64,000 nt of DNA, taken from the NCBI GenBank assembly GCA_008632985.1, contig QPGO01000032.1, positions 121,330 through 185,329 of the forward strand, given 5' to 3'. The notes beneath the pieces are model-generated. The model saw only the letters and a program-made list of their open reading frames with translations. It searched no databases and was not told the origin of the DNA. Shown in pieces: positions 21,612 through 47,717 of this stretch (the first letter of the stretch is position 1; each line of letters begins with the position of its first letter). The position numbers and the translations under genes were made by a program. Source of the stretch: Psammoneis japonica. Its lineage: Eukaryota.

Positions 21612-21789
21612 GGTCAAATTGTGTTTTTCTCTTTTTGTGCCGACGACTTCGCAGAATGACTGAGCAACATCTGAAAGGCGAACGGTACGTTGAATACAGA
21701 AATTTAGAGTATTCTCATAGTTCATAATAATGAAAAAACCACATTTTTTGATGAAAGAGTACGGGCGATGATCAGACTGAGACCTGCCG

Positions 21790-22170: not shown

Positions 22171-22485
22171 AGTGATTGATGATATTCAGATGTACCCTAG
22201 GCGGTGAAGTTGAGATTGGTGAATGAGGTCTCGGGTCAAAACTTGGTAATTGTCATGATTGGCATCTTGGGCAAATTCGTGTGGTACATGCTGGCCGGGC
22301 ATAGCACTGCAAATTATCTACGGTAATGATTGGCAGATTTCGCGTTGTGAAAGATTATCTGTGATTATAAATATGAATTTCCGCACAAAATTCACTGTTT
22401 GCCTTAACTCCTAGGGCCCTACAGTACGTAAGTTGGTGCCGGATGGTTTTGTGATGGGGAATGTATCAATTGGTCGGGGTTCAGT

Positions 22486-25153
22486 TTAACGCCGCCCCGG
22501 ACCTGGAGATGGACCTGGAGCTTTCGCTTTACCCTTCTTCCCTGCCGCTGTGGGGGCCGGTGTGGGGGGCGGTGTGGGAGCCGGGGTGGGTGCCGGGGTG
22601 GGAGCCGGGGTGGGTGCCGGTGTAGCTGTCGGTACAGTCGGCATTGGCGTCGGACGCTCCGGTATGCAAAAGTCAAGCCTATCGTCATCATCGCAGGTGC
22701 TTCCATCCTCAGCTGTTGCAGAAACTGTCACGGTCTTGTTGATACACTGGGGCGTGCAACTGTCGATCGTGCCTGGTTCAATGACGCCGCGTGTCTCGTT
22801 CGCTGGAACAGTCAAGCCGTCAACTGGCAACAGATCCCTCTCTTCTCCATTGCATGTACGCACAAGCTCATCGATCTCCAAGGACACATCACCCGGGTTC
22901 CCTATGACGTACGTGTAATTCACATCAACAAGACATTGGGAATCGATAGAGCCATCCTGGCTCCTGCATCCCTTAATCTGCAAGGCACCAAACGAATCGT
23001 CGAGACTAATGGGCGCGTTTGGATTGGTACCAGACGCATCAAAGATGTTTTCTTGATTGACAGCATTAAGACCCGACGCCACATCGATGATGGTGCAGTT
23101 GAGCTCCGTTGGGAGGCAAGTACCGTTCACGGCACCAATGGTGATGGTCTGATCGAGTCTGACGGTGCAGTTGCAGTATACCCTCTCCGTATCTACACAT
23201 ACGATCAAAGCTGAACCGGCATCAGGAATGGTATTCTCTCCGAAATCGGTACATAATGCATTTGGTTGATCGTTATCGTCCTCAGAACACGGAATATTAA
23301 TCCAAGATATAGTCAAGCGGTCAATGCACTCGCCACCGGTACAGGTTTCTGGGGGAGGAATAATGTCTTCGCAGGGTGCACCAGAGTCTCTGAGGATACA
23401 GTCCAACGAGACCTGAAGAGATTTAATCAATCAATCAACGTCAGGTTAGAAGAATAGTCATAAGGTTCACATAGAGATGAGATGATATCGTGATATTGAG
23501 AGATCCAACTTACGTCCACATCACACGCCAAGAATTCAATGCAAAATTCGTCAGATTCGCTGTCTTCACAAACAGTTCCTTCTTCGTCCTCAGCCCTGAC
23601 AGTAACGTCGGTCGTATAGCAATCGTCAATACAGCGGTCCAACACTTGATTTTCCATAGGGTTTACGCTTTGTCCCGGCTGAAGAGTTGTAGGATCGACA
23701 ATATCAATCAAATCGTCGGTTTCGCCATTGCGGGTGCGCAAAAGTTCAAGGATAGTAAAGATCGTGTCACCTGTATTCGTGACTGGGTAAGAGTATTTTA
23801 GATCCAAGAAGCAATCGTTGTTGTTTCCATCCACATCCTCACATCTCTTCAGTGTAATGCTACCAAACTTGTCTTGGAGTTGCAAATCGACCGTTCCCGA
23901 AGCATCGAAAGTGACCTCTTGGCAGAACGTATCTTCGGGGTTTGAGATAGTGATAACACACGTAATGGTGTCGGGTAGAACAGAACCTTCGTCAGCTTCA
24001 AGAGTGAAGAAGCGGAATGAGCTGTTTGGGCGGATGGCATCGTCTTGAAAGGAGAAACCGGTTCCCGTACAGCTGACTGTCAGAAGATCAGCATTCCTGC
24101 ATATCTCTTCGTTGATAGTAGTATCCATGCAAGTGAAGGTACCGTCGGTCTCCTGACTGTTGTCACTCGTATCACATGTGCAATAGTTGTACTCAAATTC
24201 GAGCTGTGTAAGTGGCTCGCCACCTGCATCGCAATTTGCATCAATCGGTGGGATGTCGTCACAGTCCGTACCAGCCATAACGTCGTCGGCTCCAGTGGCG
24301 ACCTCGCAGTCAATGCCCACCTGTTTGTTCAGAAAAACGAAAACGGAACGGTGTGTTAGCTTAGGGCGTTCATCGACAATAGTAGAAAAGTTTTGGCAGA
24401 AAAACATGTCATCAGTCTTACATCAACATCGCACACTCCAGTCGGCTGCGGCGTGGGTGCTGGCGTTGGCAGAGGAGTAGGGCCAGGAGTCGGATCCGGC
24501 GTAGGACCAGGTGTAGGCGAGGGAGTAGGAGACGGTGTTGGTCCGGGTGTTGGTGCTGGCGTCGGCCCTGGCGTCGGAGCCGGCGTTGGCGGTAGAGTCG
24601 GCCCTGGCGAAGGCGGAGGAGTGGGACCAGGAGAGGGTGCTGGTGTAGGTGGCGGAGTTGGTCCGGGTGTTGGTGCTGGAGTCGGCCCTGGCGTCGGAGC
24701 CGGCGTTGGCGGTGGAGTCGGCCCTGGCGAAGGCGGAGGAGTGGGACCTGGAGAAGGTGCTGGTGTAGGCGGCGGAGTTGGTCCGGGTGTTGGTGCTGGA
24801 GTCGGCCCTGGCGTCGGCCCTGGTGAAGGCGGAGGAGTGGGACCAGGAGAGGGTGCTGGTGTAGGCGTCGGCGTTGGTCCGGGTGTCGGGTCCGGCGTAG
24901 GTCCTGGCGTAGGCGATGGCGTCGGCGCAGGTGTTGGAGGGGGTGAGGGAGATGGCGTAATACTTTGGCTGGATATTTGAAGCAATCTTAGCCAATACTG
25001 GCTTTCTTCATCTTCCAACAGGCCGGATCCATCATATCGATGCTCTTTCTTAGAGGAGGTGTCCTCTCGATTACCGCCGAAATGGTTCTCTTGGTCAGCA
25101 GAAGAAGCCAAACGGCAGGTTACTGCCAGTATCGTAATTGACCACACTCTCAT
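22486..25153 (-). CDS. Secreted Pro/Thr-rich, acidic Cys-rich protein, paralogue A; introns 24421-24321 and 23513-23413
   Basis: Signal peptide [24 protein letters not shown] (RXL), a long PTPAP/PSPGP tract, two Cys-rich modules each with a Y.Y.(V/I).N.G beta-sandwich-like segment, and a short basic tail. GT-AG introns are in frame. Confidence 0.85.
24445..24960 (-). repeat. Coding tandem repeat (12-bp PTPx/PSPx units with a ~120-bp higher-order period)
   Basis: GTCCGGGTGTTGGTGCTGG begins at 24541, 24661 and 24781. Confidence 0.9.
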
Positions 25154-25649
25154 GTCCTGCTTGTTCTGGGTTCTCTTGCACTGTCTGTTGGCAAAAGGAA
25201 AAAAGTGAGAAAGAACCGAAGAGAAAAAGTGACCTCCGGTACATTTCACGTGTTTGTTGTTTTGAAATGGTAACGATTAGACGTCAGCTCAACTAAATGC
25301 ATGTGTTTATTCCTTGATGTTTTGGAATCGATCATAATTTCATTTTCACCTTAAGTAATTAATGTTTTTGATTAAAGAGTTGAATTTGGACCATTATATG
25401 TGATGCCAAACGCATATGACTCTGCATGGTAACGATTTTTATAGAATCATTCATGGTTGAACATATTTCTTGTAGTAAATGTATGGAAGCTACTACGATA
25501 TTTTAGAAATTAAAAAATTTATATGTATATGATTATAGAACGTTTTACAACTATGATTAAGTTAATTGTTCTTCATTCTTAATACTCCGTCAGTTCGTCA
25601 GTGGCAAAATGGCGATTCTTTGCACGCACTGCAAGATGACGAAAGCAAC

Positions 25650-26617
25650 GGTACACTGTAGTACGGACGAAAGGAAATGGCTTTGTATCGATGCGTTGAG
25701 CCACCAGGCACCTATCAGCTCTCATCTCTTTGAAGCAATGGTGTGCTAATCGAAAGAACATTGTCATGGACGGGAGAGCCTCCCGGATGCAAATTTCTAC
25801 TTGCTGTACGTTCAAGGTCGCGTGGTCGCAACTGATTGATCACAAAATTGTGTGCAGCAAGGAGGTGATCTTGAATCTGTTATTGATAGATTTTGACCGT
25901 TCGAATGAAGACGAAGCGAAGACAAAATCCTTGCTACCGACCCAATCTCCAGGGCAAGAGAGAGCAGAGACCTCTGATGGTGCGCAAACTTTCAATGCGC
26001 GCCGTCAGCAAGACTACACTGCCGATTGAATGGCCCAGGTATTTTATCGGTTAATTACATCAACCACATTGCATGATTCATCTTCTGCGTTGCTATCATA
26101 TCACAGTTTTCCCTTGCAGAAGAACAAAATGCACCCGACCCATCTTCTTTTTCATGAGAGAGAGAACAGCGAAGCCAAGTAGAGTGTTCACTCGTCATGC
26201 AACCTTTTTTTTGTGATGATTGAAGGAATAAATGCAGAACCGATCAAAAAACCTTTCGCGCTCCAAGCGTATTGCAACAACTTGTCATTTCCTCCTCTCA
26301 CTGCCCACAGCAGAGGCAAAAGGGCGCTTTGTAGGGCATGAACAATCATTGCATGTCAATGTGATGCAGGTATGATCAGCGCGGAAATCGGAGGCAGCGA
26401 TATCGTGCTGCTACAAAGGCGATAGTTTACGCAACTCTGATTGTAGCACAATTCGAGAATAAAAGAAAATATGAAATCATTGAATTGCTAAAATATGAAC
26501 TTCTTCTCTGAAGGGGGGGGGGGGGGGGGGGCGAGGCGTTGTTCCATCATTTACTGCTGCTAAACCACTGTGTTTGGAACTTTTGCACGCGTTGTCTCAC
26601 CCCAAAAGAATTCGAAA
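25650..26617. repeat. 3' flank of paralogue B, duplicated at about 43430-44350
   Basis: Colinear identity, e.g. ATCGATGCGTTGAGCCACCAGGCACCT and TCACAGTTTTCC.TTGCAGAAGAACAAAATGC. The second copy lacks about 25795-26098. Confidence 0.9.
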
Positions 26618-29600
26618 CTAAGGATTGAAGGTGAGATCCGACCGTAGAGTCTGAAGGGCAAGCGTTTCATTGAGACTACTCCCCCTGGTAAATGCGACAA
26701 TTATTGGGCCCGGTGCGGTAGCAAGGACGCGGTTGTAGAAGCGCGCAGGTTCAGAAGCATCCTGACATTCAAGGTTGGACGCCGCAACTTGTGCAAGAAA
26801 GCTTGAAAAGTCATAATTGTCCGTATATTCCAGACACTGGAACCTCCTAAAAGGGAACAAGCTGTTCCCTTCGAACACGGCCGTGCAGTTACGGTTGAAT
26901 GGAGCAACAATGGGGGTGGGGTTTGTGGCGTCCTCGCAACCATACGTTGCGCCAGAAAGCTCTTGAACAAATCCAGATAGTGGCTGGCAAGTCAGAGGAG
27001 TAGAGCCATCGTTGCCCGTAAAGGTGGGGTTACCAAACTGGAACCACGCTGAACAAGAGTATGGACGGCAGATGCCATCCCTGAAGCCACAAAATTCTAA
27101 AGCGCCACAGTCGTTGTCTACGCTGCATTCCGGGCCCGGGGTGGGAGGAGGGGTGGGAGTATTGGAAAGCTCCGCATCAATGAGGCGATCTGGGTAATTG
27201 GGATTGTAGACAAACTCCTCGACACGCGTGATGAGACCGTTAATGGTACTAGGGTTTGCGACACGGGTTGCGTACGTATAGAAAGGATCCCCATCAGAAC
27301 ACGTAAGGTCCGAGTTTGTCGTATCTTCCACAAATTGAGAGAAGTCTGTATCAGATGCATATTCCGAGCAAAAAAACTTCTGGAATTTATCCGGAAAGTC
27401 GGCTTCGCAGATGCGATTGAACTCAACTCTAAATTCCGGGTCCAAGAGCCTACAGCCCCAGTCCATTCCAACGGTTGATCTATCAGGCACATCGAAGGGA
27501 AAGCATGAGAGCGGCACCGTGCCATCATTTCCGGTAAAACTGGTGGGCCCGAACTCATACCATGATTCGCAGGAAAAGTCGCGGCATCGGTTGTCGGTGC
27601 CACAGAATGCCAAACCCATACGCCCACAGTCTGAGTTCATGGTGCAGTTCCCGGCACCGGTTGGAAATGGCGTGGGAGGTGGTGGCATAGTACCTGTAGG
27701 AGACGGTGCAGGGTAGGTGCAGGGGTCATAGGAGCTGTTGGCATAGTACTGTAGGAGACGGTGCAGGGGTAGGTGCAGGGGTCATAGGAGCTGTTGGCAA
27801 ATCAGGAGACGGTGCAGGGGTCGGAACTGGGCCCGGTGTCGGGAGGGGACGATCAGGAATACAGAAATTAAGGTCATCGTTATCTTCGCACACGCTTCCA
27901 TCTTCTGCATCTGCTTTAACAGTCACGGTCTTGTTGATACACTGGGGTGTGCAACTGTCGATCGTGCCTGGTTCAATGATGCCGCGTGACTCGCTCGCTG
28001 GAATAGTCAAGCCGTCAGGTGGCAACAGATCCCTCACTTCTCCGTTGCAGGTGCGCTCAATCTCAGTGATTTCCAAGGACACATCACCCGGGTTAGCTAT
28101 GACGTAAGTGTAATTCACATCAAAAAGACATTGGGAATCGATAACGCCGTCCTGGCTCCTGCATCCTTTAATCTGCAAGGCGCCGAACGTATCGTCGAGA
28201 CTAATGGGCGCGTTCGCATTGGTACCAGATGCATCAAAGATGTTTTCTTGATTGACAGCACTAAGACCCGACTCAACATCGATGATGGTGCAGTTGAGCT
28301 CCGTTGGGAGACAAGTGCCATTCACGGCGCCAATGGTGATGGTTTGATCGATTTTGACGGTGCAGTTGCAGTACACCCTCTCCGTATCTACACATAAGAT
28401 CAATGCTGAACCACCTTGAGGAATGGTATTCTCTTCGAAATCGGTACACAAGGCATTTGGTTGATCGTTATCGTCCTCGGTGCACAGAATATCAATCCAG
28501 GCAATAGTCAAGCGGTCAATGCACTCGCCACCGGTACAGGTCTCTGGGGGAGGTCTGATATCTTCGCAGGGTTCACCAGTGTCTGCGAGGATGCAGTCCA
28601 ACGATACCTGAAGAGATTTGTTCAAAAAATCAACGACAGGTTAGAAGAAAATCCACATAAGGTTCACATAGAGATGAGATGATATCGTGATATTGAGAGA
28701 TCCAACTTACGTCCACATCACACGACAAGAATTCAATGCAAAATTCGTCGGATTCGCTGTCTTCACAAACAGTTCCTTCTTCGTCCTCAGCCCTGACAGT
28801 AACGTCGGTCCTGTAGCAATCATCAATGCAACGGTCCAACACTTGATTTTCCATAGGGTTTACGCTCTGTCCAGGCTGAAGAGTTGTAGGATCGACAATG
28901 TCAATCAAGTCATCGGTTTCGCCATTGCGGGTGCGCAAAAGCTCAAGGATAGTAAAAATCGTGTCACCTGTATTCGTGACTGGGTAAGAGTATTTTAGAT
29001 CTAAGAAGCAATCGTTGTTGTTTCCATCATCATCCTCACATCTCTTCAGTGTAATGCTGCCAAACTTGTCTTGGAGTTGCAAATCGACCGTTCCCGAAGC
29101 ATCGAAAGTGACCTCTTGGCAGAACGTATCGTCGGGGTTTGCGATAGTGATAACACACGTAATGGTGTCAGGTAGAGCAGAACCTTCGTTAGCTTCAAGA
29201 GTGAAGAAGCGGAATGAGCTGTTTGGGCGGATAGCATCGTCTTGAAAAGAGAAACCGGTTCCCGTACAGCTGACTGTCAGAAGATCAGCATTCCTGCATA
29301 TCTCTTCGTTCATGGTAGTGTCCATGCAAGTGAAGGTACCATCGTTCTCCTGACTGTTGTCACTCGTATCACATGTGCAATAGTTATACTCAAATTCGAG
29401 CTGTGTAAGCGGTTCGCCGCCTGTATCGCAATTTGCCTCAATCGGTGGGATGTCGTCGCAGTCGGTACCAGCCATAACGTCGTCGGCTCCAGTGGCAACC
29501 TCGCAGTCAATGCTCACCTGTTTTGTTCAGAAAAACGAAAACGGAATGTGTTATCTCAGGGCGTTCATCGACGACAGTAGAAAAGTTTTGGCACAACAAC

Positions 29601-29979
29601 ATGTCATTATTCTTACATCAACGTCGCACTCTCCAGTCGGCTGCGGCGTGGGTGGAGGAGTTGGTAGTGGGGTGGGTGCTGGCGTTGGCAGAGGAGTAGG
29701 GCCAGGAGTGGGATCCGGCGTAGGACCAGGTGTAGGCGAGGGAGTAGGAGACTGTGTCGGTGTTGGAGGGGGTGAGGGTGATGGCGTAATACTTTCGCTT
29801 GATATTTGAAGCAATCTTAGCCAATACTGGCTTTCTTCATCTTCCAACAGGCCGGATCCATCATATCGAAGCTCTTTCTTTGAGGTGTCCTCTCGATTGC
29901 CGCCGAAATGGTTCTCTTGGTCAGCAGAAGAAGCCAAACGGCAGGTTGCTGCCAGTATCGTAATTGACCAGACTCTCAT
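26618..29979 (-). CDS. Secreted Pro/Thr- and Cys-rich protein, paralogue B (A/C chimera), with a 1-bp frameshift at about 27750
   Basis: Exons 1-2 are close to A and exon 3 is close to C. B has GGCATAGTACTGTAGG at ~27750, versus GGCATAGTACCTGTAGG in C and in the adjacent repeat unit. Either a pseudogene or an assembly error. Confidence 0.8.
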
Positions 29980-31499
29980 GTCCTGCTTGTTCGTGGGTTC
30001 TCTCTGCACTGTCTGTGGCAAAAGGAAAAAAGTGAAGGACCGACGAAAAACAGTGGCCTCGGTACTTTTTCCCTGTTTGTTTCTTAATTTTGACGATTAA
30101 ACGTCAGCTCAACTAATGCATGTGTTAATTCCTGTATGTTTTGGCATCGATCACAATTTCATTTCACCTAAAGTATTTAATGTTTTTTATTCAAAGTTGA
30201 ACGCCTATTGTGACTCTGCATGGTAACGATTTTTATGATATCATTCATGGTGAACAGTTCAAATCGTGTAAATATCGAAGCTACTGAACGACTTCTTTTT
30301 ATTTTAATTAATAAATGAATTTTTCTAAATTCTTAAGGGGGGTCATCCCCGCGTTTGTCCTCTAGAATTACCGTCGCATTATTTGAAGAAGGATATTTTT
30401 AGTGTTTATTTTTGAATCCAAAAATTGTTTACATTCACCCCCTGTCGCGCATGAAAACGAGAACATCAGGCACCGCGATCGAAGCACGACGATGACGGCA
30501 ATGTCGACATGGCTCAAAAACGCAGTGGTCCGTCCTCAAACATTTGATGCACACATGAACTTTGACACACAATGAACATAAAGTGAATGAGAGTTGACAG
30601 ATGGACCGCCTCCTCCGTCACAGACTTGTGGTTTGACATTTTCACCACGGTGAAGCATGGTGAAAATCAGGGAAAATGACGCAAATCACAAGCTGCTTGG
30701 TCAAATTTGGGCTAAAAAAAGCAGCAAATGACCCCCCTTGATGCTCCATCATTGCTGGACATCAGTCTTCATTTCTGTGGGCTGCAGCCCACTGCATGGC
30801 GCGTTGAAAGCTTTCCAAGCCCTGCTGCCACCAGAGCCAGCCAGCAGCTGGGCTCCTCCAAGCCAAGCAATGAGAGGATGCTCTGGCTGGTTCAGTCGTG
30901 GGGGTTGGCCAAGGATGGAGGACAGACAGACATGATGAGATCCCAGACATGAGACCAGCCAATGCATTGTTTCCTTGGTGGTCAGCATCGGAAGGGTTGC
31001 TTGCAACCATGGCCCACTGCAGCGACCATGTCTCACTGCAAAATTGTCATCCGTTGATGGCAGTCACCAACCAAGGTTTGGGGAGTGACATGTGTCCTCC
31101 ACATGCATCCAGTGTCAAATTCTGCACTTGGTGTGGAGCAATTTGATCAGGAAATTGGAGTCAAGGACTCGTGAACAGTCGCTGTTTTTCCCATGTTTTG
31201 CACACCAGCAATGCCCACATGGCATTGCTCAACGCAATGAGGATGGTCTCCTTCATGCAATGAAAAGCCACAATCATCTTGTCTGTTCCTCATGGGGGCC
31301 TCAATCCCATCTGAAGGAACTGGCCCCGTTCCATCGGCCATGGTTGATCTCCGCATTTGGTGTGGGTGTGGAGTCACAAATGTGTTCATGTGTGCACACA
31401 CATTGCAAATTCTCTTTGTTCATGTCAACTTGCTCAACTGAAGGCCCCACATGCTTGGTGCTCAACCAACACATGTCTGTCTGCGCCACAAATGTTTTG

Positions 31500-33240
31500 A
31501 CATGTTGGGCACATCAGAGGCCCGTTTTCATGAATCATCTCATGGTCGGACCAAAGGACAATGTTGCAGCTGGCATGTGTGAGTGTCATTGCATGAATTT
31601 GTTTGGGATGGATCATCACCATTTAACACAAATCACACCTGTTTGCCACAAATGGGTTCAATTGCAAACAAACAAATGTCCATGCAAACCAACAAACATC
31701 CGGGGATGTCAACAAACAGTCATCAACCCCAATGAGTGAGGCTCAACCCAATGAAAAAGGAAAACCAGAAATCTGTTTTACTGCTGCCTTGTCACTGCCC
31801 ACACCAACAATGCCCACAGTGGACCCACATTCCCCAGCACCCACAAATGGCAGCAGGGACAGTTTCAAATGCTGCCCAGCCACACCACTTGGGAGACACC
31901 AACAAAATGAACACTGCAGAAAACCAAACACGTGTCTGTCTCCAAAGACATTGTGCTTGAAGAGATGTGAGAGAAATTCCTGGGATGAAAAACACCCAAG
32001 AAAGTCCAACACAGACCCCAACAAAGAAAAGGAAATGATGATTGGAGTTGTCAGATGAAAGTTCCATCATGCGCAGAATTGCACAGAAATTGTGCACTGA
32101 AGCTGCAACATCAAAGAGCAAGAGGAGCAACAGCGAGACTTGGAAATGCCAGCCACTTGGAAGACTTGTGAATGACCCACTTTGGAACACCGTAGAACAC
32201 CCATCATGAATTGCAGCACATTTGGAAAGAAAACTCAAAGGAAGCATGTTGGTGAGAAGAACAAGAGAATGAACCTGACACAGTCATTGACTTGAAGTTC
32301 TGGCCAAATGCGCAGAATTGTGAATGAAATTTGCACTGAAACAACTGACTTGGAAGTTGCTGAATCGCATGGAATTTAACACAGAAAACATGCTGACATT
32401 GGGAAAGAAAATGCAAAGAGGTGTGACACCATGGTGGTGCCACTCCCCCAAATGTAGACACAACAGAGTGTCCCCTCCGACACCATTTGGTTTCTCTGTC
32501 ATTGGCGCACACAAGTGCCTGACATCCCAAAGTGCCCAAGGAGGTTGGCATTCCACCACACATTCACACGGGACAATCCTGCTGGCGAGGTGCAACCCAA
32601 TGAGTTTGCAATTCCAAACAAGTTGCTTGACAGGATTTCACTTTGCTTGTCATCACCAACCAGGTGATGACCAAATGCACAGTGTTCGGACTCATTTTCA
32701 GTTTTTGCTGTCAAAGTCAATCGGTTGACTTGTGTGTCAATGCAATTGTTCTCCATTGTCCCATCCATTTGTTGCATGTTGCTGCTGCAATTGATTGTCA
32801 ACAAGTGTGAGTGATCACTGCCAAGTTAATCTTGACCAAACTGCCACCAACTTCAGTTTGTAGATTTTGGCACAGTTGACCTGGTGGTCATCTTCATCAT
32901 CCGAGCCACCCTGTGCTTCTTGTTCTGCCACCCTTTGATCTTGCTCAGTTGCAACAGCTCTGCAGAGCTGTTCCCACTGGCTGAGGCGTCTGCTTGCAAC
33001 ATCTTGCTTGACCTCCATGACCATGTCAACAAAGAACTTGTTGGCCTTTGGTGACCACCCTTTGCTCTTCCTTGGTGTCTTGTGCTTCCTCGGCACTGCG
33101 CTTCCATCAGTGTCTTTTGGCTTTGCCGCCGTGAAATGCTTGAGTGTCCTGACAACCTTTCTCTTCTTGCTGGATGCATCCGCATTGTTTTGGATGTCAA
33201 ACAAGTGCTTTTGTAGCCTCGGTCAGAGCTGTGACTTGTG
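31500..33240. repeat. Dispersed TE family segments with copies at about 49825-50720 (inverted) and 63600-64000 (direct)
   Basis: 32630-33240 is the reverse complement of ~49825-50470 (both encode DIQNxAxASSKKRK...GWSPKANKFFVDMVME). 31500-31700 is inverted at ~50520-50720. 31760-31985 matches 63615-63998. Confidence 0.85.
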
Positions 33241-35103
33241 CTGCAGTCTTTGGCTTGTCTCTGATCTTCTTGACCATTGCGCCCCGTTTTGCAACGGACT
33301 CTTCCCTTGCACAAACATGCTCAGGTCCTGGTCATCCTTCTCCTCAGCTGTCATGAGGTCTGGCATGATGGTCTCCCACAAGTCATGGCATTGCTTCCCT
33401 CTTGGTCTGTTGAGCCTCCATTGTTGACCAACTCCAAGTTGTGATCCAACATCAAAGTCCCGCCCTTGTTTTGGCTCTTGCAGTTGGCATCATGCCACAC
33501 ATCGCAGTTGTTCTTAGGGGCATGTGCTGGGCAAACACCTCAGCGCACGCTGCACCCATCCTCTTGTCCTTGGCAATGCACTCTTTCCAGCATGTGTCTC
33601 CAACAATCGGGTGCAGCATGCAGTCATGGAGCACTGTCTGCAAAGCCGGGTTTCCCAAGCAATCTTGGAATCTTTTTGCGTATGGCAAGATGCAATTGTT
33701 GCCATTGCAGCATGCACAAAGAGCTTCATTTGTGGCAGGGAAAGCAAGTGATGACACTGTCAGCAACTTCAATGGCTGTTCTTGTTGCACCCTCCATTTG
33801 CACTCACTGTGGAACTTGTCCTGCTGCACCTGGCACACATTTGACCTCTCAATTGTCAGCCACTCCTGACACATCTTTTTTTGTTTCATTGTGAGCCACA
33901 GGTGGTGCAGGTGTGTTTTTGCTCTGGCTTGGGTAAATCCTGCAGCATCCCATCCATCATCTTGGGGCCACAATTTTGTTCACTGTCCCTGCAGAGCATG
34001 CCCGTTTCTTCCATTTCTTTGTCATTGAATGTGTGACACTGAGGAACAATGTTTCCTTGACGCATTCTCTTGCCTTTGCCATGTCCCCTGCTTCACCTTG
34101 GCATGATCGGCCATCCAATTGGTTGAACTTGTCTGCCACTCCACAATGACCATTGTCCTCCGCTGCTGCCGCAGCATTTTTTTCCAGTGTGTGCCAAAGC
34201 ACACTGAAGTGAGGTGATGGATGCAGTTGAGTCTTGCGGACAGTGTGCTTGCAACGGTTGTCTTTCTCCCTTCTGCATGTTTTTTCACTTGCCTGAATGG
34301 GGTCTTTTCCCCACATTTTTTTATTTGGCTGCACATCTGTGTTCCAATTTAAACAGATCCTCCCTCCAATTCAAAACTTTTCATCTTCAATGTCTGAACA
34401 TGTGTTTGTCTTGATGTCAATGTCTCTTTACAGCCAACTCTCCAATGGCTGTTGCCATCATGCCAAGTGACTCCCACTCAAAAATCAACCAAGTCTTCAC
34501 TCAATGATTTGATTCAAAAATCAATCCGACACCTGCACGCCAACAAATGGTTGTGAACAAGCATCCAATTGTTTCATCCTGCTTCTGCTGCCTTCCTTTT
34601 CCAATTGGACTCTCAGCTTGGCATGCCTTTTTGCCACCGTTGCCACCAATGCCGGCAAAATGTGCACCCTGCTCCAGTGCATCTGCCACAACTCAATTGA
34701 GCCAGCCATTCTGCATGCCACTGTTTTTGTTTTCCAAGAACAGCAAATTGCTTGTCAGTTGTCCGTTTCTGCCTCTGAGAAAGGCAAAGTGGCAAATCCC
34801 AGCACTGACTTCAATGCAGACAACAACCCACCCAGCAGTTTCCCACCTGCAGAAGACCCAGAGCTTTTTCCTGCACCTGACAAGGAAGCAGAGGAGGAGG
34901 AGGAGGAGGAGAAACGTGACGACAATTCCTCTCATTGCAAAATGTTTCCTGGCACTCTTTTGCTGCTTCTTTGTCTTCCCCTCTGGACAAGACATCTGAA
35001 GAACCCACCCTCCCCCTGATCTGCTGACTGTCCCACCCACCACTGCCAACTTGGATCCCTTGCATGGGGAGGCACCTGATCCACCAACCTTTTTACTTGT
35101 GGA

Positions 35104-35358
35104 GGAAGCTTTGCTGGAGCTGATCACACTGTGTGACAATTCCGGCACCACTCATCAATTTTGAAGTCAGTTGCTCACCCTGTTGCAACAATTTTGCAAG
35201 AAGTGGAAATTTGATTGTTCCAAGTGTTTTGGAAGCTTTGCTAGAGCTGATCACACTGTGTGACAATTCCGGCACCACTCATCAATTTTGAAGTCAGTTG
35301 CTCACCCTGTTGCAACAATTTTGCAAGAAGTGGAAATTTGATTGTTCCAAGTGTTTTG
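35104..35358 (+). repeat. 127-bp tandem duplication
   Basis: Units start at 35104 and 35231 and are identical except GCTGGAGC versus GCTAGAGC. Confidence 0.9.
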
Positions 35359-36602: not shown

Positions 36603-37321
36603 AAAAATGGGTTTGCTGTTCTGCCTGTGTGCAGCGATGCAATTTCTCAAGCCATGTGAGACAGCCAGTTGGCACTTGCAGAATGGTCATGATCCAGGAC
36701 TTGCCAATGTTGGTTTCTGATGACCAAATTGTGCATGTTTTTTGGATCCTTTTTTCAATGGCAAAGTGGTGGAAGTTGGGAGTGCCTGTGTTTTCATCAA
36801 TCCACTGGAGAAGCAACATGATGTCATTTGTCATGTTGTCCATTCTGTGGTTCAGAACCAAGCTTTGGAGTTTGTTTTGGGGAATCTCCCATTGGCAATT
36901 GTCCTTGTTTGGTGATTCAATGCATCGCCTCTCTTGCCAGGAGGGTCACCAGTGGAGGCATTGGTCACATGGCAGTGCTTCTTGCTGTCCAGTGAAGTGT
37001 GGAAACCACACTGTCACCTGGGTCATCACCAACTTCATCATCATTTGCTTCAGCACAGTGCACTTCTTCAATGAAATCACATCCACTTGGGTTCATGCAG
37101 CAAGGGGTGACTCCAATGTCACCAGCAGCTGTTCTGAAGTGCTTGATGGCACAGTGGAAATAAACAAGTGCAGTGTTGCCTTGAGAATTGCACAGTTCCT
37201 CCAAGTGCTTTGCTCCAATGTAGAAGAAGTGATTGAAGCAAGTCTGGCAGCTTGCCATGACAGCCAGATGAACACAACCACAAATGTCAAGGTCATCACA
37301 GATGTTGTGTGTGTGTGTGTG

Positions 37322-37337
37322 NNNNNNNNNNNNNNNN
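37322..37337. other. Assembly gap (N run) between (TG)n and poly-G
   Basis: Ns in the sequence. Confidence 0.98.
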
Positions 37338-39949
37338 GGGGGGGGGGCTTGGCAAGAGAAAGCAGAGATTTCTTGTAACAGAAGTGGGGGAGACCGCAGT
37401 CTCCTGCACTGTGTCACTGTGTTGTCCTCAGATCTCAGCAAGATAGACTCCCACGAACAACCATCATCAAGGAAAAGCTCTTCTGGGTGGCAATGGGATG
37501 GATCACCCTCAGGCAAAGTTTGTGTGCCGGAACATTCATGAATGAACCTGTCGCAGTTGCAATCAATTGCATGTGTAAAAACACCAACCCTTGCCTGGAG
37601 GTCTCTCATGCCACATTTCTTGATGCAGCAATCACCAGCCTCAGCACGGCTGTCAGTCAACAATTTCAGAGACCAAAGGTTGCCAACCTTGTCTGTCCTG
37701 AATGAGCAAAAAGCTCCGGTGTCATTGTGCGTGAACCAACAGCAGTCCTCTTTGTCTTTGTGTTCATGAGTTCTGTCACCAAGAGGCTCATGTTCTTGAG
37801 CTGAATTGAGTGAAGCTCATTGCCAGCAACTTTGGCACCAAGTTCCTCTCGTGTGGGTTGGCCAAACTGATGGGTGTGCTCCTTGTTGTTGCAGGAAGGT
37901 GGGAGATCAAAATGATTGATGTGCAACTCATCCTGACAGAGCTGCATGCAGTCAAAAGCATCAGCCAACATGGCCTCCACTTGGGGAATAAAATCTTCAT
38001 CATCGTTGTCCATTTCAAACATGTCAAAGCCAAACAAAGGAGAGGGCATTGCTTTGACCTTGTCTCCAACAACCCAATTCTGTCTGCAGCAACCAAAGTC
38101 AACATGACTTTTATGAACCCCCCCCCAGGAAGATGTTTGTTGTGGCTCTTGTCAGTTGTGCCACACTCCAAAACAAAACAAGCTTGTGTTCCAAAATGAA
38201 GTTTGAGCCCAGAGAAATGTTTTTTAAGTGGCTTGTCATCAGAACGGAGCATGGTTTGACCAGCTGCAATCTTGGTGACTTGGAGAGGGACTGAAATCAG
38301 CTCACAAGAGTGCCACATTGGATTGGAGAGTGACCTCAACGAAACAAATGTGTCAAAGCATGGAGGTTCACCACAAGGTGGAAATCCAAAGAGGAGTGAT
38401 GCAGAATTGGCTCTTGGTTGTTTGAGTTGTCATTGACATCACCGTCTTTGTCTGCCCCATTGCAAAATGCATGAAGACAAGGAGTGACTTTGGCAATTTG
38501 TTGAAGGCTGGGGGCAGGGCACTGATGCTCCGGTGGGAAATGAGCATGCCAGTTGTCCATGGGAACAACAAACTGGTCAGTCGTTTGATGAAGGGTGGCT
38601 GGTTGGGAGCTGGAAACATCATCATCTGTGGTCACATCATCTTCATCATTGTCAAGGTCACTGATGAGTTGCGCAAGGGGGGGGGGGGGCTTGGCATTGG
38701 GACAGCCAGAGGGATCATTGAGGCGGTGACAGGATGGCTGTTCAATGTCCATTAGAGTGTGCATTGTGGTGGTTTCCACTTTCTTTTGTAATTTTTTATT
38801 GTGCATTGTCAAAATTGTCAAAAATGAGAATTTAAAAAATGCCGGCAAAAGTGCTCAACAAAATGCAGCTGTTTTGTGCATTTCATCTGATGTCTCATTA
38901 ACTTTTCTTGCACAAGCTTCAATCAAATGCATGCAATGTTTAATTTGACAGGGTTCGAAATCTACATTTTGTGATGCGTGTTTTGGTTTCCTTTTGATTG
39001 CAATCAATTTGAACTTGGTTTTAACTTCATCCTCCTCACACTCACGTGCGTGTGTCTTTGCAGGTGTGCAGCAGTCTGCTGCACATGGCTTCACGCACGC
39101 ACGTGACCCACCTTCATTTTTCTTCATGTTTCCCAGATTTGCACAGCCCGTTGGTCTGCGGCATTTTCAGCACAAATTTTACATGCACATTTTTCTACAC
39201 ACTTCACAACACAACAGCACATCCTCTCCCCAAAATTTGAAAAACGAGAGCATGCACTGTTGTGATTCACGTGGATCCTGCATGTGGTTGCAAATCGGCA
39301 AATCAACAACCGGCCATGGTGGTGAAAGACTTTGCCCCATTGGCCAATGACAGCAGCTCAACACATGGTGAAACCTGCTGTCCTTCTGGTTGGTCAAGAT
39401 GGATTTTGATTCGGGTGCAGCTTGAGTTTCATGATCGCGATTGTGCTGTCACGAGTCTGCCGCATCCAGAATGCTGAGCTGCTGGCATGTTGTTTTGTGC
39501 ACGCACATCACAAACTTGCTTTTCTGCAGCATTGGTGCAGTCATGTGTGTCAGAGTTTTGCACCCAGAATCATCACAAGTTACCACAAATGACACTTTTC
39601 AAACAAGGCATGCACAGAAAGAGGTTTGTTGGTTTTTAATGCATTTGCTGACAGTGCATCTGTCTTCTCCAATTTCTGCATCAATGTCCAGAAATGCTGC
39701 AGACAGTGCTTGTTCCTGCAGCTCTCAGAATCACACACATGAAAAGTTCTTTGCTGTGTGTGACACTCTTCAAAAAAGGCATGCACAAAAAGAGCTTCAT
39801 TTGTTTTTCATGTGTTCAATTGCGTTGTGTCCGTCTTCTCCAATTTCCACTTCCAGATCCAGAAAAACTGCAGAGGCAGAGAGTGGGGAGGCAACCCGTT
39901 GGAGGTTGCCTGAGTTGTCAGGCTCATTTTTAAAGAAAAAAAAACAAAC

Positions 39950-40100
39950 TCTAATTTTAAGTGCTGTCACACCTTTGCCCAGCAACACCGGCGCCGGCCA
40001 ACCCACACTTCCAGTGCACCCTACGGAGGATGCAGCAGAAGATCGTGCAATTAGCCAGATTCGGCGCCCTGGATGGGGACACCCAATGGAAACAGCTGAA
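39950..40100. repeat. Dispersed repeat with an inverted copy at about 55970-56115
   Basis: CCAGCAACACCGGCGCCGGCCAACCCACACTTCCAGTGCACCC versus the reverse complement CCAGCAACACCAGCACCAGCCAACCCACACTTCCGGTGCACCC; differences lie at CpG sites. Confidence 0.8.
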
Positions 40101-40149
40101 GATGGTGCAAGTGCCTCTTTTAGCCAGGCATTTGGCTTCTTTCAAGCTT

Positions 40150-42900
40150 TCTTTGAGTCTTGGGGACCACAGAGATCCAATTTTGAATCCTCGCAGTGGC
40201 AAATGAATGGTGTTCCTCAACTGAATCTAGCAATGCGCCTCTGTCTTTAGCCAAACATTCCTGGCGTTTGTTGCAAATCGCCATCAATTCAGCTTCAACC
40301 TTTCTTCGTTGTGATGATTTACGAGACTCCACATCATGCAAGTGAGCCAGCTGGTTGTGCTCCTCCCATGGCTCCCACCAGCTTCTCCATGTGCAGGATC
40401 CCATCTGGACAGTCCAATCTGGTGGCTGTTTGTTTTCCTCCTGATGTTGACGCAAGATGCCTGAGTCGCAAAGATGACCAGTTTGTAGAAGGTTCCACAT
40501 GAACGAATGTCTGCCGTTGAAGATCTGTTGCCATCCAACACCCAACTGAGCTTTCCACAACTCCTTGCATCTGCAGTCCACGTTGTTGAGATGCGTGATT
40601 TCCTCGTGAAACCAAGCCTGCAGCATGTCCAATGGAAAGTCACAAAGAACAGGCATTGTGTCCACCTTGTCACAGTGTCTTTGCAGGCCTTGTAAGAACT
40701 TCCTCCTCCACTGTTCATTGTTGGGACATCGCAGAATGTGGTCCCTGTCTTCCATCGGATGATCTCATGTAATGCACTGGTGAGGGTGAACCGGATTGTA
40801 TCTGTGTGCAATTTTGTTGGCAGGTGACAAGTCGTGGACCAATTTTACCGTGTTGATGTGTTTCTGCGAATGACGCTTCACTGGGACCGCGTGGGCATTC
40901 CAATCAACTTGATCAGGCTCATTTTTAAAGGCTTCCCAAGTCTCTCTGCTGTTTCTGGTCCATGCTCCAAACATTTCATTGATGAACCATTCACAGCACA
41001 AGAGGCAGGTGCAAGGCAAACTTGGTCATTGCCGCACAATGTCTTGCACCACACACCGGCATCAATGTTGCTCCGGAATCAGCAGCGCTGGATGCGCATC
41101 GATGCACCGGCAAGTGTGTGTTTCAGCTCATGTCAGTTCATCTGCCTTGTGCTCTCACAATGTGCTCCACACTTTTTGGCAATGAACAAGGTTGACATCA
41201 GAGCAACAGCACTTCTGCTGCAAACTTGCCAGCTCCAGAATCAGCGGCATCAGACACACTGGCAAGTCCATGTTGCCAATTCACCAGCAAGAGTGTGTTG
41301 CGGTTCATGTCAGTCCATCTGCCTTGTGCTCTCACAATGTGCTCCACACTTTTTGGCAATGAATGAGGTGGACATCAGAGCAACAGCACTTCTGCTGCAA
41401 ACTTGCCTGCTCCAGAATCAGTGGCATTGGATGCACTGGCAAGCCCATGTTGCCATTCCTGTGGGTTGTGTTGGATCATCTGTGTTGCACTCTCACAACA
41501 TGGAAAAACTGGACATGCTTTTCAAGCACAATTGCTGTGTGGTTGGCCAAGCATTCAACTCTTGCACTCTGACTCTTGGAATGCTTGAATGCAAGAGGGA
41601 ACAATTCATTGAAGTGTTGACCTGTTGGATCAAAGAGGTGTGCACCTGTGACCTCTTGGAGGCTGCGGGTCTCAATGGATCACTTGAGAACCACACAAGA
41701 TGTGTGAGATGGGCTTGCCCACTTTTCTTCAAACTGCAGAATGTCACAAGAGCAGCATTCAAGCAGTGTCACCACATCATTTGGAGCCAGTGCAACAAGG
41801 AGATGAAGGTGGTTGAGCAACTCTTTTGTCAATTGCTGAATGCACAATGAAAGCAGACAGGTCAAATTGCCACCAAGGAGATGCTGGCGGCACTGCTTTG
41901 GCACACGCAAGCAAAAATTAATGTGTTGAAGGAGCTCAGACCAATCCTGACTTGTTCTCAGAGCACATTGGTTTTGTTGTCCCAAGAGACCCTGACATCC
42001 GGTGCTGTGGCAATGCTGGCACAGATTTTGGAGGCAGTGGATGCTGCCCAACATTGTGCTTCTGGCTTGACATTGGATGCGGTGTCAAGAATGCTGGACT
42101 GGGAACCCAGGGACACATCCACAGCATCATCAACCAATTGGAGTTCCCAGTGGTGACTCTCCTGTTTGCAGGGATCATTGCCTGGATGCGCGTGCTGACA
42201 TGGGAACAAGCTGACACAATGTTCCTGAATGGCATCCCTCCCCAGCCTGTTGTCCCAAATGAATGTGATGACTCTGCTTCTTCCTTGTCATGAAGCAACA
42301 AAGGATTGTCCACATTGCCATCTGCACAAGCCATGATCGCACATTTTTGTGAACAGTTGCGTGCCTCAGGAATGAGGCACAATTCTTGGACCTTGCTGGG
42401 ATGCTCAATCTGTTGGCTGACAATGCCATCTTGTGTCAACCTGACTGTGCTTTGCATCTTTTTGTCCACTTTGCTCAGCTGTGTCAGAGTTGGCCTGTGA
42501 TGAGGGATTGGGACTGTTTCCTCCCAAGTCCCAAGCTGCTACAGGGCCTCTGTTGTGCACTGTTGACAGCATCAACAGTGGTGCTGGCCGCAATCCCCAA
42601 GAATTTAGGATGCTTTGTTTGCGCTGAATCCATTGCTTTTGGCTCACCCATGACATGAACTGGCACAAGGATGACCCAGGTGTGACAATGGAAAATCTTG
42701 GCACCATTTTATGATGGCAATCCATGCATTGCATCTCATGTCAGGGAGTGCTTTGTTCTGCAAGCAAATCAAATTGGATGCCATCAAGAAGTGCCTTCTC
42801 ACAGCAGTGTCTTTTTGCACCCTCTTCAGCAAGGCTTGCCGGGACATTCACAGGAGCAACCCATTGAAAAAGGAGTTTTGTCCCTTGCTCCAGAATGTCT
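40150..42900 (-). mobile_element. Degenerate LINE (RNase H-bearing type), 3' portion
   Basis: VDWNAH...VKLVHDLSP...RY...C...EDRDHILRCP (C-terminal Zn-knuckle region) and QLGVGWQQIFNGRHSFMW. Upstream, ACADG and SHSFGTTGWG resemble RNase H motifs. Includes a ~180-bp tandem duplication at about 41105-41460. Confidence 0.6.
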
Positions 42901-43831
42901 TCAAGAGCATTGAGGAATGTGAAGAGGAGCCTGCATGCAAAGAGCCTGCAACCCTCGAGATGGTGGTTGAGCAGATTTGTCAAGGGGAATTCACGGCAGA
43001 GAAAGATCCAGATGGGCTCGTTGCCATCCAAGGAGATTGGAGCCAAGCAGCAACAACTGGTGGATTGTGGTGTGGTGAACATGCTCAGTCCAAGAATGAG
43101 AAAAACCCACAGCATCCACAATGAAATTTCAAGGATGACACCAAGGCTTTCACTCTGCACGATGTTTGCATCCCAACAAAGGACAGAAAGTGCTGCAAAG
43201 GAGCGGACATTGCTGCTGACACCCCTCTCTCAGTGGCATTGAAGAGTTCAAGCACAAGGCATTGTCTCAGATCAGTTGTGTTTGAGCAGTGCACTGCATT
43301 GTTTGCTGCTTTGCACGCCTGTCAGGTCACAACAACTGTGAGACCCCCTTGTCAACACACCGCAGTGAGAAGGGGAGTGTGAACTTGCTGACCACAAGTG
43401 ACTGACACTGCACTGTGCACTGCATTCATGCCACACCATGGCAGTTCAGAGGAAAGGAAATGGCTTGTGCAGCATCGATGCGTTGAGCCACCAGGCACCT
43501 GTCAGCTCTCATCTCAAGCAATGGCAGACCAATCAAAAGAACACCGTCATTGACAAGAGAGCCCTTTGGATGCAAAACAATCACAGTTTTCCTTTGCAGA
43601 AGAACAAAATGCTCCCGACCATCTTCTTGTTCATTGCAGAGGGAACAGCAAAGCCAACTGGCATGTTCACTCATCATGCAGCCTTTCTTTTGTGATGATT
43701 GAAGGAACAAAAAATGCAGAACAAAAACATTTTGCGCTCCAAGCGTGTTGCAACACCTTGTCATTTCATCCTCTCACTTCCCACAGCAGAGGCAAAAGGG
43801 CACCTTGTAGGGCATGAACAATCATTGCATG

Positions 43832-44360
43832 TCAATGTGATGCAGGCATGACATCAGCGCGGACATCGGGGCAGCGATATCCTGCTGCTACAAAGGCGAT
43901 AGTTTACGCAACTCTGATTGTAGCATCATGCGAGAATAAAAGAAAATATGAAATCATTGAATTACTAAAATATGAACTTCGTCTCTCTGAGGGGGGGCGC
44001 GAGGCGTTGTTCCATCATTTACTGCTGCTAAACCACTGTGTTTGGAACTTTTGCACGCGTTATCTCACCCCAAAAGAATTTGAAACTAAAGATTCAATGT
44101 GATGCAGGTATGACATCAGCGCGGACATCGGGGCAGCGATATCGTGCTGCTACAAAGGCGATAGTTTACGCAACTCTGATTGTAGCACCATGCGAGAATA
44201 AAAGAAAATATGAAATCATTGAATTACTAAAATATGAACTTCGTCTCTCTGAGGGGGGGGGGCGCGAGGCGTTGTTCCATCATTTACTGCTGCTAAACCA
44301 CTGTGTTTGGAACTTTTGCACGCGTTATCTCACCCCAAAAGAATTTGAAACTAAAGATTG
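43832..44360 (+). repeat. About 262-bp tandem duplication abutting the stop codon of paralogue C
   Basis: TCAATGTGATGCAGG(C/T)ATGACATCAGCG...GAAACTAAAGATT starts at about 43832 and 44094. Confidence 0.9.
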
Positions 44361-47300
44361 AAGGTGAGATCCGACCGTAGAGTCTGCAGGGCAAGCGTTT
44401 CATTGAGACTGGAAGCCCTGACAAATTGGAAAGTTATAGGTTGCGGTGCACCTATGGTAGCAAGGACGATGCTGTAGTAGCGTGCAGGTTCAGAAGGATC
44501 CTGACATTCAAGGTTGGACGCCTCAGCTTGTGCAATAAAGCTTGAAAAGTCATAATTGTCCGTATATTCCAGACATTGGAACTTCCTTAAAGGTAAATCG
44601 GCCGTGCAGTTCCGGTCGAATGGAGCAACAATGGGGGTGGGGTTTGTGACGTTCTCGCAACCATACGTTGCGCCAGAAAGCTCTTGAACAAATCCAGATA
44701 GTGGCTGGCAAGTCAGAGGAGTGGAGCCGTCGTTGCCCGTAAAGACGGGGTTACCAAACTCGTACCACGCTGAACAAGAGTACGGACGGCAGATGCCATC
44801 CGAGAAGCCACAAAATTCTAAAGCGCCACAGTCATTGTCTACGCTGCAATCCGGGCCCGGGGTGGGAGGAGGGGTGGGGGTATTGGAAAGTTCCGCATCC
44901 ATAAGGCGGGGTGGGTAATTTGGGTTCCACACAAACTCCTCGACACGGGTGGTGAGACCGTTAATGGTACTAGGGTTTGCGACACGGGTTTCGTACGTAT
45001 AGAATGGATTCCCATCAGAACACGTAAGGTCCGAATTTGTCGTGTCTTCCACAAATTGAGAGAAGTCTGTATTAGACGCATATTCCAGACACTCAAACTT
45101 CTGGAATTTATCCGGAAAGTCGGCTTCGCAGATGCGATTGAACTCAACTCTAAATTCCGGGTCCAAGAGCCTACAGCCCCAGTCGACTCCAACGGTTGAT
45201 GGATCAGGCCCAGCAAATGGCGAACACGAGAGCGGCACCGTGCCATCATTTCCGGTAAAACTGGTGGGCCCGAACTCATACCATGATTCGCAGGAAAAGT
45301 CGCGGCATCGGTTGTCGGTGCCACAGAATGCCAAACCCATACGCCCACAGTCTGAGTTCATGGTGCAGTTCCCGGCACCGGTTGGAAATGGCGTGGGAGG
45401 TGGTGGCATAGTACCTGTAGGAGACGGTGCAAGGGTAGGTGCAGGGGTCATAGGAGCTGTTGGCATAGTACCTGTAGGAGACGGTGCAGGGGTAGGTGCA
45501 GGGGTCATAGGAGCTGTTGGCAAATCAGGAGACGGTGCAGGGGTCGGAACTGGGCCCGGTGTCGGGAGGGGACGATCAGGAATACAGAAATCAAGGTCAT
45601 CGTTATCTTCGCACACGCTTCCATCTTCTGCATCTGCTTTAACAGTCACGGTCTTGTTGATACACTGGGGTGTGCAACTGTCGATCGTGCCTGGTTCAAT
45701 GATGCCGCGTGACTCGCTCGCTGGAATAGTCAAGCCGTCAGGTGGCAACAGATCCCTCACTTCTCCGTTGCAGGTGCGCTCAATCTCAGTGATTTCCAAG
45801 GACACATCACCCGGGTTAGCTATGACGTAAGTGTAATTCACATCAAAAAGACATTGGGAATCGATAACGCCGTCCTGGCTCCTGCATCCTTTAATCTGCA
45901 GGGCGCCGAACGTATCGTCGAGACTAATGGGCGCGTTCGCATTGGTACCAGATGCATCAAAGATGTTTTCTTGATTGACAGCACTAAGACCCGACTCAAC
46001 ATCGATGATGGTGCAGTTGAGCTCCGTTGGGAGACAAGTGCCATTCACGGCGCCAATGGTGATGGTTTGATCGATTTTGACGGTGCAGTTGCAGTACACC
46101 CTCTCCGTATCTACACATAAGATCAATGCTGAACCACCTTGAGGAATGGTATTCTCTTCGAAATCGGTACACAAGGCATTTGGTTGATCGTTATCGTCCT
46201 CGGTGCACAGAATATCAATCCAGGCAATAGTCAAGCGGTCAATGCACTCGCCACCGGTACAGGTCTCTGGGGGAGGTCTGATATCTTCGCAGGGTTCACC
46301 AGTGTCTGCGAGGATGCAGTCCAACGATACCTGAAGAGATTTGTTCAAAAAATCAACGACAGGTTAGAAGAAAATCCACAAGTTAGCATTGGGATGAATC
46401 GAGAATGTCGAGGGATCCAACTTACGTCCACATCACAAGGCAATAATTCAATGCAAAATTCGTCAGATTCACTGTCTTCACAAACAACGCCTTCTTCGTC
46501 CTCAGCCCTGACAACAACTTCGGTCGTGTAGCAATCCTCAATGCAGCGGTCCAGCGTTTGATTTTCCATTGGATTTACGCTTTCTCCCGGCTGAAGAGTT
46601 GTAGGATCGACAATGTCAATCAAGTCGTCGGTTTGGCCGTTGCGGGTTCGCAAAAGTTCAAGGATAGTAAAAGTCGTATCACCTGTATTCGTGACTGTGT
46701 AAGTGTATTTTAGATCCAAGAAGCAATCCTTCTCGTTCCCGTCGTCGTCCTCGCAGCTCTTTAGCGTAATACTACCAAACTTGTCTTGGAGTCTCAAATC
46801 CACTATTCCTGAAGTATCGAAAACCACCTCTTGGCAGAATGTATTGCCGTCGGGGCTTGAGATAACACACGTCATTGTTCCAGGTAGAGTGGAACCTTCG
46901 TTAGCTTCAAGAGTGAAGAAGCGATCAGATCCACTGCTGCTGACGGCATCGTCTTGAAAGGAAAAACCATCTCCTTCACAGGTAACACTCACAAGATCAG
47001 CGCTACTGCAGAAGTCTTCGTTGTCAGTAGTATCCATGCAAGTGAAGGTACCATCGTCCTCCTGACTGTTGTCACTTGTACCACATTCGCAATACAGGTA
47101 CTCGAATGTGAGCTTTGTGAGTGGTTCGCTAGTTGCGGCGCAATTGCCATCAATCGGTGGAATATTTTCACATTCGCTACCGACTGGTACGTCGTCGGCT
47201 CCGCTGGCAACTTCGCACTCAAGTATTACCTGATTGTTCAATAACACGGAAACGGCATATTAGCTTGTCTGCTGTTATTTGGTGAGAATCTTTTTTGCGC

Positions 47301-47717
47301 AAAATTTCCTTTACTTACATCAACATCGCACTCTCCAGTCGGCTGTGGGGTGGGTGGTTCAGTTGCCGGGGTGGGGATTGGCGTAGGTGGCAATGTCGAG
47401 AGTGGGGTGGGTGGTGGAGTAATCGGCGTCGGGGGTGGAGAGGGCGGAGGAGTAGGACCTGGCGTAGGTGGCGGTGGCGGCGTCGGATTCGGTGTTGGAC
47501 CTGGTGAAGGAGGTGGAGTAGGAGGTGGGGTTATGCTCTGACTGGTGTCTTGAAGAAGCCGTAGCCAGTATTGGCTTTCATCGTTCATCAAACCGGTTCC
47601 GAAACCAAACGCATTCCTCGAGTCGCTATCGTCTCGATTGCGGTCGCTATGGCTGAGCCTGTGAGAAGAGACCAAAAGGCATGTTGCTGCCAGTATCGTT
47701 GCACCCAGAATTCTCAT
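44351..47717 (-). CDS. Secreted Pro/Thr- and Cys-rich protein, paralogue C (intact); two introns at about 47318-47230 and 46425-46331
   Basis: Signal peptide MRILGATILAATCLLVSS, WLRLLQ, PTPP tract and two Cys-rich modules. These are followed by two C-terminal C.(M/V).(S/N)DCG..(A/E)FCG..D..CR..SC..W..FG repeats that A lacks. Confidence 0.88.

Follow-up and report, generated by a model that had tools for sequence, protein, structure and literature searches.

Every mutagenic genome defence poses the unsettled question of how parasitic DNA is distinguished from the cell's own, and repeat-induced point mutation (RIP) answers it by homology. The question is raised by a 64,000-nucleotide stretch of the diatom Psammoneis japonica genome (the window: positions 121330-185329 of contig C34, GenBank QPGO01000032.1; contigs are named as G000:Cn), in which three duplicated genes, paralogs A, B and C, stand among blocks of DNA from which the dinucleotide TpA has been erased. 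Our best reading is that duplication itself is not the trigger, and that the location of a sequence matters more than its repetition. We consider it rather probable that a TpA-specific mutator acts in cis on silent domains, mostly seeded by transposons, and stops some 0.4-0.5 kb from working genes. The assembly searched comprises 91 Mb in 597 contigs, and a wider survey of duplicates, islands and boundaries covers 514 kb from three contigs.

Erased blocks and spared paralogs

Four blocks of the window (Table 1) have lost most of their TpA and much of their CpG and are rich in CpA and TpG. The ratio of observed to expected TpA (o/e) is 0.01-0.2 in most 1-kb windows of erased blocks, whose edges were placed with a two-state model. 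Between 44 and 61% of the three sampled stretches, about half, is erased, and the erased blocks that were searched are largely multi-copy DNA. A candidate stretch of single-copy DNA, 41500-43420, was rejected as it has relatives at 66-71%.

Paralogs A, B and C keep the normal composition that the original prediction ascribed to them, with a coding TpA o/e of 0.65-0.69 (A 0.69, C 0.66) and a CpG o/e of 0.90-0.94. Saturated DNA had also been placed a few hundred bp away, which is true of B and C, the block edges at 30431, 43878 and 48120 lying 452 bp from the start of B, 473 bp from the stop of C and 403 bp from the start of C, but not of A, which is at least 5 kb away from erased DNA. Synonymous TpA use is similar in the paralogs (192/514) and in six neighbouring open reading frames (ORFs), five of which lie within a stretch shown to be single-copy (179/521, p=0.33). 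An unpolarised comparison of A and B finds differences at 17/50 synonymous TpA sites versus 14/89 in controls (p=0.02). This roughly twofold excess was set aside as a mutator signature, since losses polarised with outgroups do not exceed gains, and is read as ordinary TpA avoidance: synonymous and intronic losses amount to 9/85 versus 14/262 in controls (p=0.13), and gains to 14/148, so that there are more gains (14) than losses (9). Paralog A has lost none of 26 such sites. A control class over all sites was dropped for coding DNA, being rich in constrained positions. The original prediction, against which an excess of TpA loss at these sites would have told, is thus not refuted, although the B lineage shows a weak excess that is weighed below.

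B is a mosaic, its 5' half resembling A (95%) and its 3' half C, with the switch inside intron 2 near 28656; the first half of this intron is A-like and the second is identical to C. B and C are homologous over 3.3 kb at 89%, plus the flank, and the near-identity of about 1.1 kb noticed earlier is borne out by a tract of ~1.15 kb that is 99.8% alike by substitutions, against ~90% on its 3' side and 82% in exon 2. The copies of this tract have 41 TpA in common and neither substitution is a TpA loss; at position 27869 A has the C state, which makes the difference a TpA gain in B. Given this mosaic pattern, recent gene conversion is the likeliest origin of the tract. A and B had been called very similar over exons 1-2, which holds for exon 2 (95.0%), but the Pro-Thr repeat of exon 1 differs in length; the common part of exon 3 is 87.8% alike. 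By themselves these three genes say little against a homology trigger: the tract is young, and the purifying selection acting on them (dN/dS 0.11-0.51) would purge hit alleles. Moreover, protection of active genes, by whatever means, would hide such a trigger, and other duplicates were therefore examined.

Duplicates hit or spared by place

For the age-matched comparison of gene duplicates with transposon copies that had been proposed earlier, the young element at 1000-2852 served in 11 copies, among which TpA sites differ at 15-51%, CpG/TpG sites at 5-9% and control transitions at 0.4-3.7%. TpA sites differ at 55/119 (46%) in three transposon pairs with 2.2-3.7% control transitions and at 73/959 (8%) in eight host pairs with 1.9-4.0%, the pairs being mutually non-independent and the host pairs coding. 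The direction of change is T>C/A>G at TpA, with both TG and CA outcomes, and CA/TG swaps are seen.

Within the survey, further pairs are hit mostly on one side (47:0, 26:1, 21:0, 8:1 and 0:8), and many others are erased in both copies within large blocks. The genome has 64 matches to DUF7467, the domain carried by A, B and C, and 14 stretches around them were compared. A gene on contig C18 contains 2.5-kb tandem repeats at 97-98% that are spared, with balanced TpA differences, and a paralog on C292 has a spared 2.3-kb Pro-Thr array with a TpA o/e of 1.5. The C89 copy of the C18 gene is interrupted by stops and frameshifts, and its breakage may be recent; about 4 kb of it, at 92-95%, is spared (7:8, with 81 TpA in common over 2.7 kb), and erasure (44:1) affects 1.65 kb towards its 3' end. 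An array of 2.8 units of 514 bp (98.8% alike), without a long ORF, keeps all of its TpA (42 and 43). The last unit of this array (G000:C3:754106-754522, L113:2107-2523) shows 3 CpG losses and no TpA loss. A 3.3-kb pair at 99.2% around a deaminase gene on C41 and C317 (L152, L153), in which TpA is kept, may represent alleles or a recent duplication and was excluded from the comparison as possibly allelic.

The flanks of B and C give a one-sided pair within the window. Relative to the B flank the C flank has lost 6 TpA and 8 CpG, and the reverse losses are 0 and 1 (p=0.03; pooled p=0.001). The B flank was rejected as a transposon, as only two copies were found, and a single read contig agrees with 25300-26358 but for 1 letter. 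That both near flanks were hit independently was likewise rejected: no CA/TG swap occurs in the near flank, so that its low TpA (o/e 0.20 in B) is older than the duplication. The 262-bp tandem duplicate just 3' of C has 14 TpA common to both copies and 1 lost in the copy closer to the erased block.

A miniature inverted-repeat transposable element (MITE) lies beside the B promoter. Its target duplication stands intact as TTAA towards the promoter and as TTGA towards the block, and the element keeps 8 TpA in its gene-near half and 2 in its far half. A search with the element gave 254 first-look candidates and 42 matches, and among the best-scoring 30 copies the TpA count tracks the state of the flanks (rho 0.76) and has no clear link with age (rho -0.24, p=0.21). 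TpA numbers 26-29 in each of the seven copies whose flanks are both normal, and at most 12 in 11 of the 12 whose flanks are both erased. Taken alone the MITE could still reflect RIP with leakage, as 400 bp is the RIP size limit. One copy (L083) has 2 TpA but 26 CpG and differs by only 0.5% transversions from another (L069) with 26 TpA, a contrast which indicates that the loss of CpG lags far behind the erasure of TpA; the 514-bp array shows the opposite order in its final unit.

One-sided pairs and MITE copies show the same sequence hit or spared according to its place, which argues that location decides more than repetition does. The original prediction that targeting is not homology-based as in RIP stands on the one-sided hits, the spared tandem arrays, the context-dependent MITE and the islands without copies described below, rather than on A, B and C.

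Boundaries relative to genes

TpA o/e falls with distance from a normal ORF, from 0.6-0.7 within 400 bp to roughly 0.4 (400-600 bp), roughly 0.2 (700-1100 bp) and less than 0.1 beyond 1.4 kb, a trend that is partly circular in that the ORFs were picked as TpA-normal. For 48 block edges the median distance to such an ORF is 355 bp, and the values vary widely. Low-TpA domains are found in none of 99 ORF gaps shorter than 1200 bp, in two of eight of 1200-2000 bp and in all 25 that are longer, although three of these 25 are GC-rich rather than CA/TG-rich and erased. Host-derived DNA is erased too, including the C flank, a fragment of a host gene and a host gene that is broken, so the transposon-specific trigger that was first proposed does not hold. 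The accompanying suggestion, a protection of expressed genes, would agree with the distances of the edges, on the supposition that the genes concerned are expressed; for A, B and C no RNA source was among those listed.

Palindromes of the CTAG and TAGGGCCCTA-like type fill TpA-rich tracts at 21800-22200, 47850-48130 and L029:2340-2460, which are located upstream of genes or at block edges and are possible promoter or boundary elements.

Table 1. Coordinates of the features discussed, as positions in the window.
Feature	Position	Strand	Remarks
Paralog A	22486-25153	minus	Spared; encodes 821 aa in 3 exons, with a hydrophobic N terminus, Pro-Thr repeats and two DUF7467 domains
Paralog B	26618-29979	minus	3 exons, DUF7467; mosaic; largely spared
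Paralog C	44351-47717	minus	3 exons, DUF7467, 1060 aa, open frame; alone between two erased blocks; spared
Conversion-like tract	B 27507-28656 / C 45228-46379		Differs by 2 substitutions and two 1-bp gaps
B downstream flank	25655-26362		Host DNA, two copies only (here and beside C); retains TpA/CpG that the C copy lost
C downstream flank	43438-43838		Within edge of erased block
262-bp tandem duplicate	43832-44355		97% alike, nearly spared
401-bp MITE	30333-30741		Short terminal inverted repeats
Young multi-copy element	1-6017		Partly erased; 1000-2852 is the age-matched transposon control
Erased block	8287-12281
Single-copy host genes	12600-21900		PGA_cap, kinesin, COG8/Dor1; background for TpA use
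Erased block between B and C	30431-43878		TpA and CpG erased; mostly multi-copy DNA
Erased block upstream of C	48120-64000		TpA and CpG erased; weak RVT_2 match at 59095-59697, below cut-off

Evolutionary and mechanistic interpretation

In the scenario that we favour, a TpA-specific A:T to G:C mutator would act in cis on silent chromatin domains, which would mostly be seeded on transposons, spread into whatever DNA adjoins and halt about 0.4-0.5 kb from working genes. A, B and C would escape by being located in gene territory, and conversion between paralogs could then proceed without mutation. The enzyme is probably an adenine deaminase, to judge from the spectrum and from a proposal made for Bigelowiella natans in a preprint (10.64898/2026.01.13.699255). 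The genome has 27 C5-methylase domain matches, one Piwi-domain locus and 9 deaminase-domain matches, of which 6 ORFs were scanned, none having a chromatin-reader domain and none being assigned to ADAT2; these domains show only that the parts could exist. Among side observations, C5-methylase domains are found within TpA-erased DNA (L149, L150, L151; G000:C301, C297), probably carried by mobile elements, and in one open frame, L156:313-1785, a 2OG-Fe(II) dioxygenase is joined to half of a zinc-deaminase domain.

Small islands provide a further view of targeting. Defined as erased segments of less than 2 kb with a CpA/TpG excess, there are seven in the C3 and C1 stretches, low-TpA segments without that excess being left out of the count. 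Two of the seven have no detected copy, though partners may have been lost or have diverged: one, of 596 bp, lies midway in a 1.4-kb spacer, and the other is of 1325 bp, of which 1000 bp were searched genome-wide. Among the segments without the excess is a 3.2-kb stretch of 25% GC with few TpA (G000:C1:515839-519048), where the low TpA is not erasure.

Several observations weigh against the positional scenario. The strongest concerns a 751-bp two-copy tandem duplicate of host DNA (G000:C3:863925-865430), resembling a gene start and promoter, which has an erased island on its junction. Of the 14 TpA in the first half of copy 2, 13 are lost, and that both second halves were hit after the duplication is shown by 13 CA/TG swaps; no transposon was detected there. 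It is the best evidence that we have against the claim that targeting is positional and independent of homology, and fits either repeat sensing or a default erasure of DNA away from genes. Four of the seven islands include multi-copy DNA. The B lineage has lost 3/21 and 4/12 synonymous or intronic TpA versus 2/67 and 1/23 in controls (p=0.09 and 0.04, post hoc), and at the 5' end of B relative to A the losses are 6:0 in B, a possible faint leak. One MITE copy between erased flanks retains 20 TpA. Finally, age confounds the contrast within the C89 copy, whose erased part (3.9% transversions) is the older and whose spared part (1.4-1.9%) the younger.

It is possible that repeat sensing helps to seed a domain, as at the C3 tandem pair. 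In its full form, such an explanation would have homology, detected through small RNA or DNA pairing, seed a silent domain that active-gene chromatin blocks, and only non-expressed duplicates would be hit. We regard this as unlikely, though deserving of some weight. Both copies of the C3 pair are hit, apart from the part of copy 1 that overlaps a coding region, repeated DNA is present in five of the seven islands, a Piwi-domain locus exists, and the final unit of the 514-bp array shows its CpG losses; but that array keeps all of its TpA, the broken C89 copy keeps its 81 common TpA, two islands are without a detected copy, and the B. natans target is single-copy (10.64898/2026.01.13.699255).

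A different possibility, and quite an unlikely one in our estimate, is that an A-to-G eraser acts by default on all DNA outside a zone of about 0.4-0.5 kb around active genes, needing neither transposon nor repeat and recognising neither repetition nor foreignness, the genes bearing a protective mark or repair zone. The trend with gap length agrees with this, as do the 596-bp island that fills the middle of its spacer and the C3 duplication, which stretched a spacer from about 1.0 to 1.8 kb, the centre of which is erased. However, six of the eight gaps of 1.2-2.0 kb are unhit, including the 1344-bp spacer between A and B, and the broken C89 copy is spared; the long gaps derive mostly from transposon insertion, which makes the trend partly circular, and the islands without copies may be old transposon relics. 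Were default erasure true, transposons, dead duplicates and unique spacers would all be destroyed, by a genome defence that marks self and not non-self.

That RIP-like pairing mutates both copies, with A, B and C as survivors from which hit alleles were purged and in which conversion reset the copies, is very improbable: purifying selection and the conversion evident in B and C would allow it, and RIP too leaks into flanks (10.1101/2022.11.30.518637), but the change here is T>C/A>G and not C>T, non-coding and broken duplicates are spared, and the one-sided pairs (47:0, 44:1, 26:1 and 21:0) contradict it, save if in every case the hit predates the spared partner.

Other features of the window

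As assembled, B has two 1-bp deletions, near 27710 and 27749, that shift the frame. Read contigs restore a base at both gaps and none among those listed supports the deletions, which are probably assembly errors; B as a pseudogene was rejected as unsupported. The B/C tract was also considered as an assembly artefact, but one contig spans 27374-27712 without another letter, at a depth of 96 versus 54 for the B flank contig, and no divergent third version is present among the contigs listed; this support is weak, depth not being copy number and the run perhaps being the assembly's own sample. Summed contig depth over 27861-28648 is about four times that of the flank, though only A, B and C match closely, and a further paralog may contribute. 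An atlas search with exon 2 of C gave matches that were all under 0.9.

A 2.3-kb spared island between two erased blocks contains a 445-aa ORF (6786-8126) with no Pfam match and with HerA/AAA+-like atlas neighbours at 0.97-0.99. Among the relatives listed for the COG8 protein, at least 120, the only one that carries a taxon name comes from a Bacillariaceae sp. and is 60% identical. Inside an erased block are two tandem pairs, 35104-35359 (127 bp, 99%), which probably arose after erasure, and 41102-41455 (177 bp, 90%).

Comparison with known systems

RIP, for which RID/DIM-2 are needed, is considered to deprive fungi of gene duplicates of recent origin, and diatoms are diploid during growth. 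That a process as thorough as RIP here spares expanding gene families shows that defence and gene-family growth can coexist. In fungi, dense C>T transitions destroy transposons, with a heterochromatin link for old repeats (PMC11969663, 10.1101/2022.11.30.518637, PMC7296669); both copies of duplicates from 400 bp are mutated (10.1101/2022.11.30.518637), even at 90% identity, and the process is tied to haploid premeiotic nuclei (PMC11969663), so that diploid growth would hamper a search for paralogs of this type. The diatom process likewise destroys transposons by dense transitions and leaks into adjacent unique DNA (the C flank), as would any spreading process. It is nevertheless not RIP, three defining features of which were tested and none found. 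C:G to T:A is not the main change, TpA sites differing more than CpG/TpG sites among copies of the young element; duplicates of at least 400 bp are not mutated in both copies (44:1, 47:0, 26:1), C3 being the one such case; and linked duplicates of at least 90% identity are spared (B/C, A/B, the C18 2.5-kb repeats and the 514-bp array).

In the diatom Phaeodactylum tricornutum, transposons undergo DNMT5-dependent CG methylation (PMC9998398). A transposon-focused silent mark of this kind could explain the CpG loss in blocks; unlike the loss of TpA, however, only C>T is explained by methylation. We found no report of TpA erasure in diatoms in the openly accessible literature, and nothing useful on diatom small RNA.

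The closest parallel is B. natans (10.64898/2026.01.13.699255), in which integrated DNA from NCLDV (nucleocytoplasmic large DNA viruses) and from virophages undergoes TpA>TpG/CpA hypermutation. There the main target is a silent single-copy viral insert, hit during clonal growth, so that homology is not needed; TpA-poor clusters take in transposon domains, and an ADAT2-like deaminase is the candidate enzyme. In both organisms A:T to G:C change at TpA affects both strands and is confined to regions. In the diatom, unlike B. natans, about half of the sampled DNA is erased, CpG is lost too, edges lie near genes, and the targets are mobile multi-copy and host-derived DNA, viral or foreign origin not being the criterion. 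The preprint makes no mention of diatoms, leaves targeting open and, in the parts consulted, does not test duplicates or boundaries; the P. japonica genome offers natural paired controls, the same sequence in different places, together with a measurable boundary. Its TpA process would thus appear to work like the hypermutation of B. natans, as a variant with different targets and gene-bounded edges.

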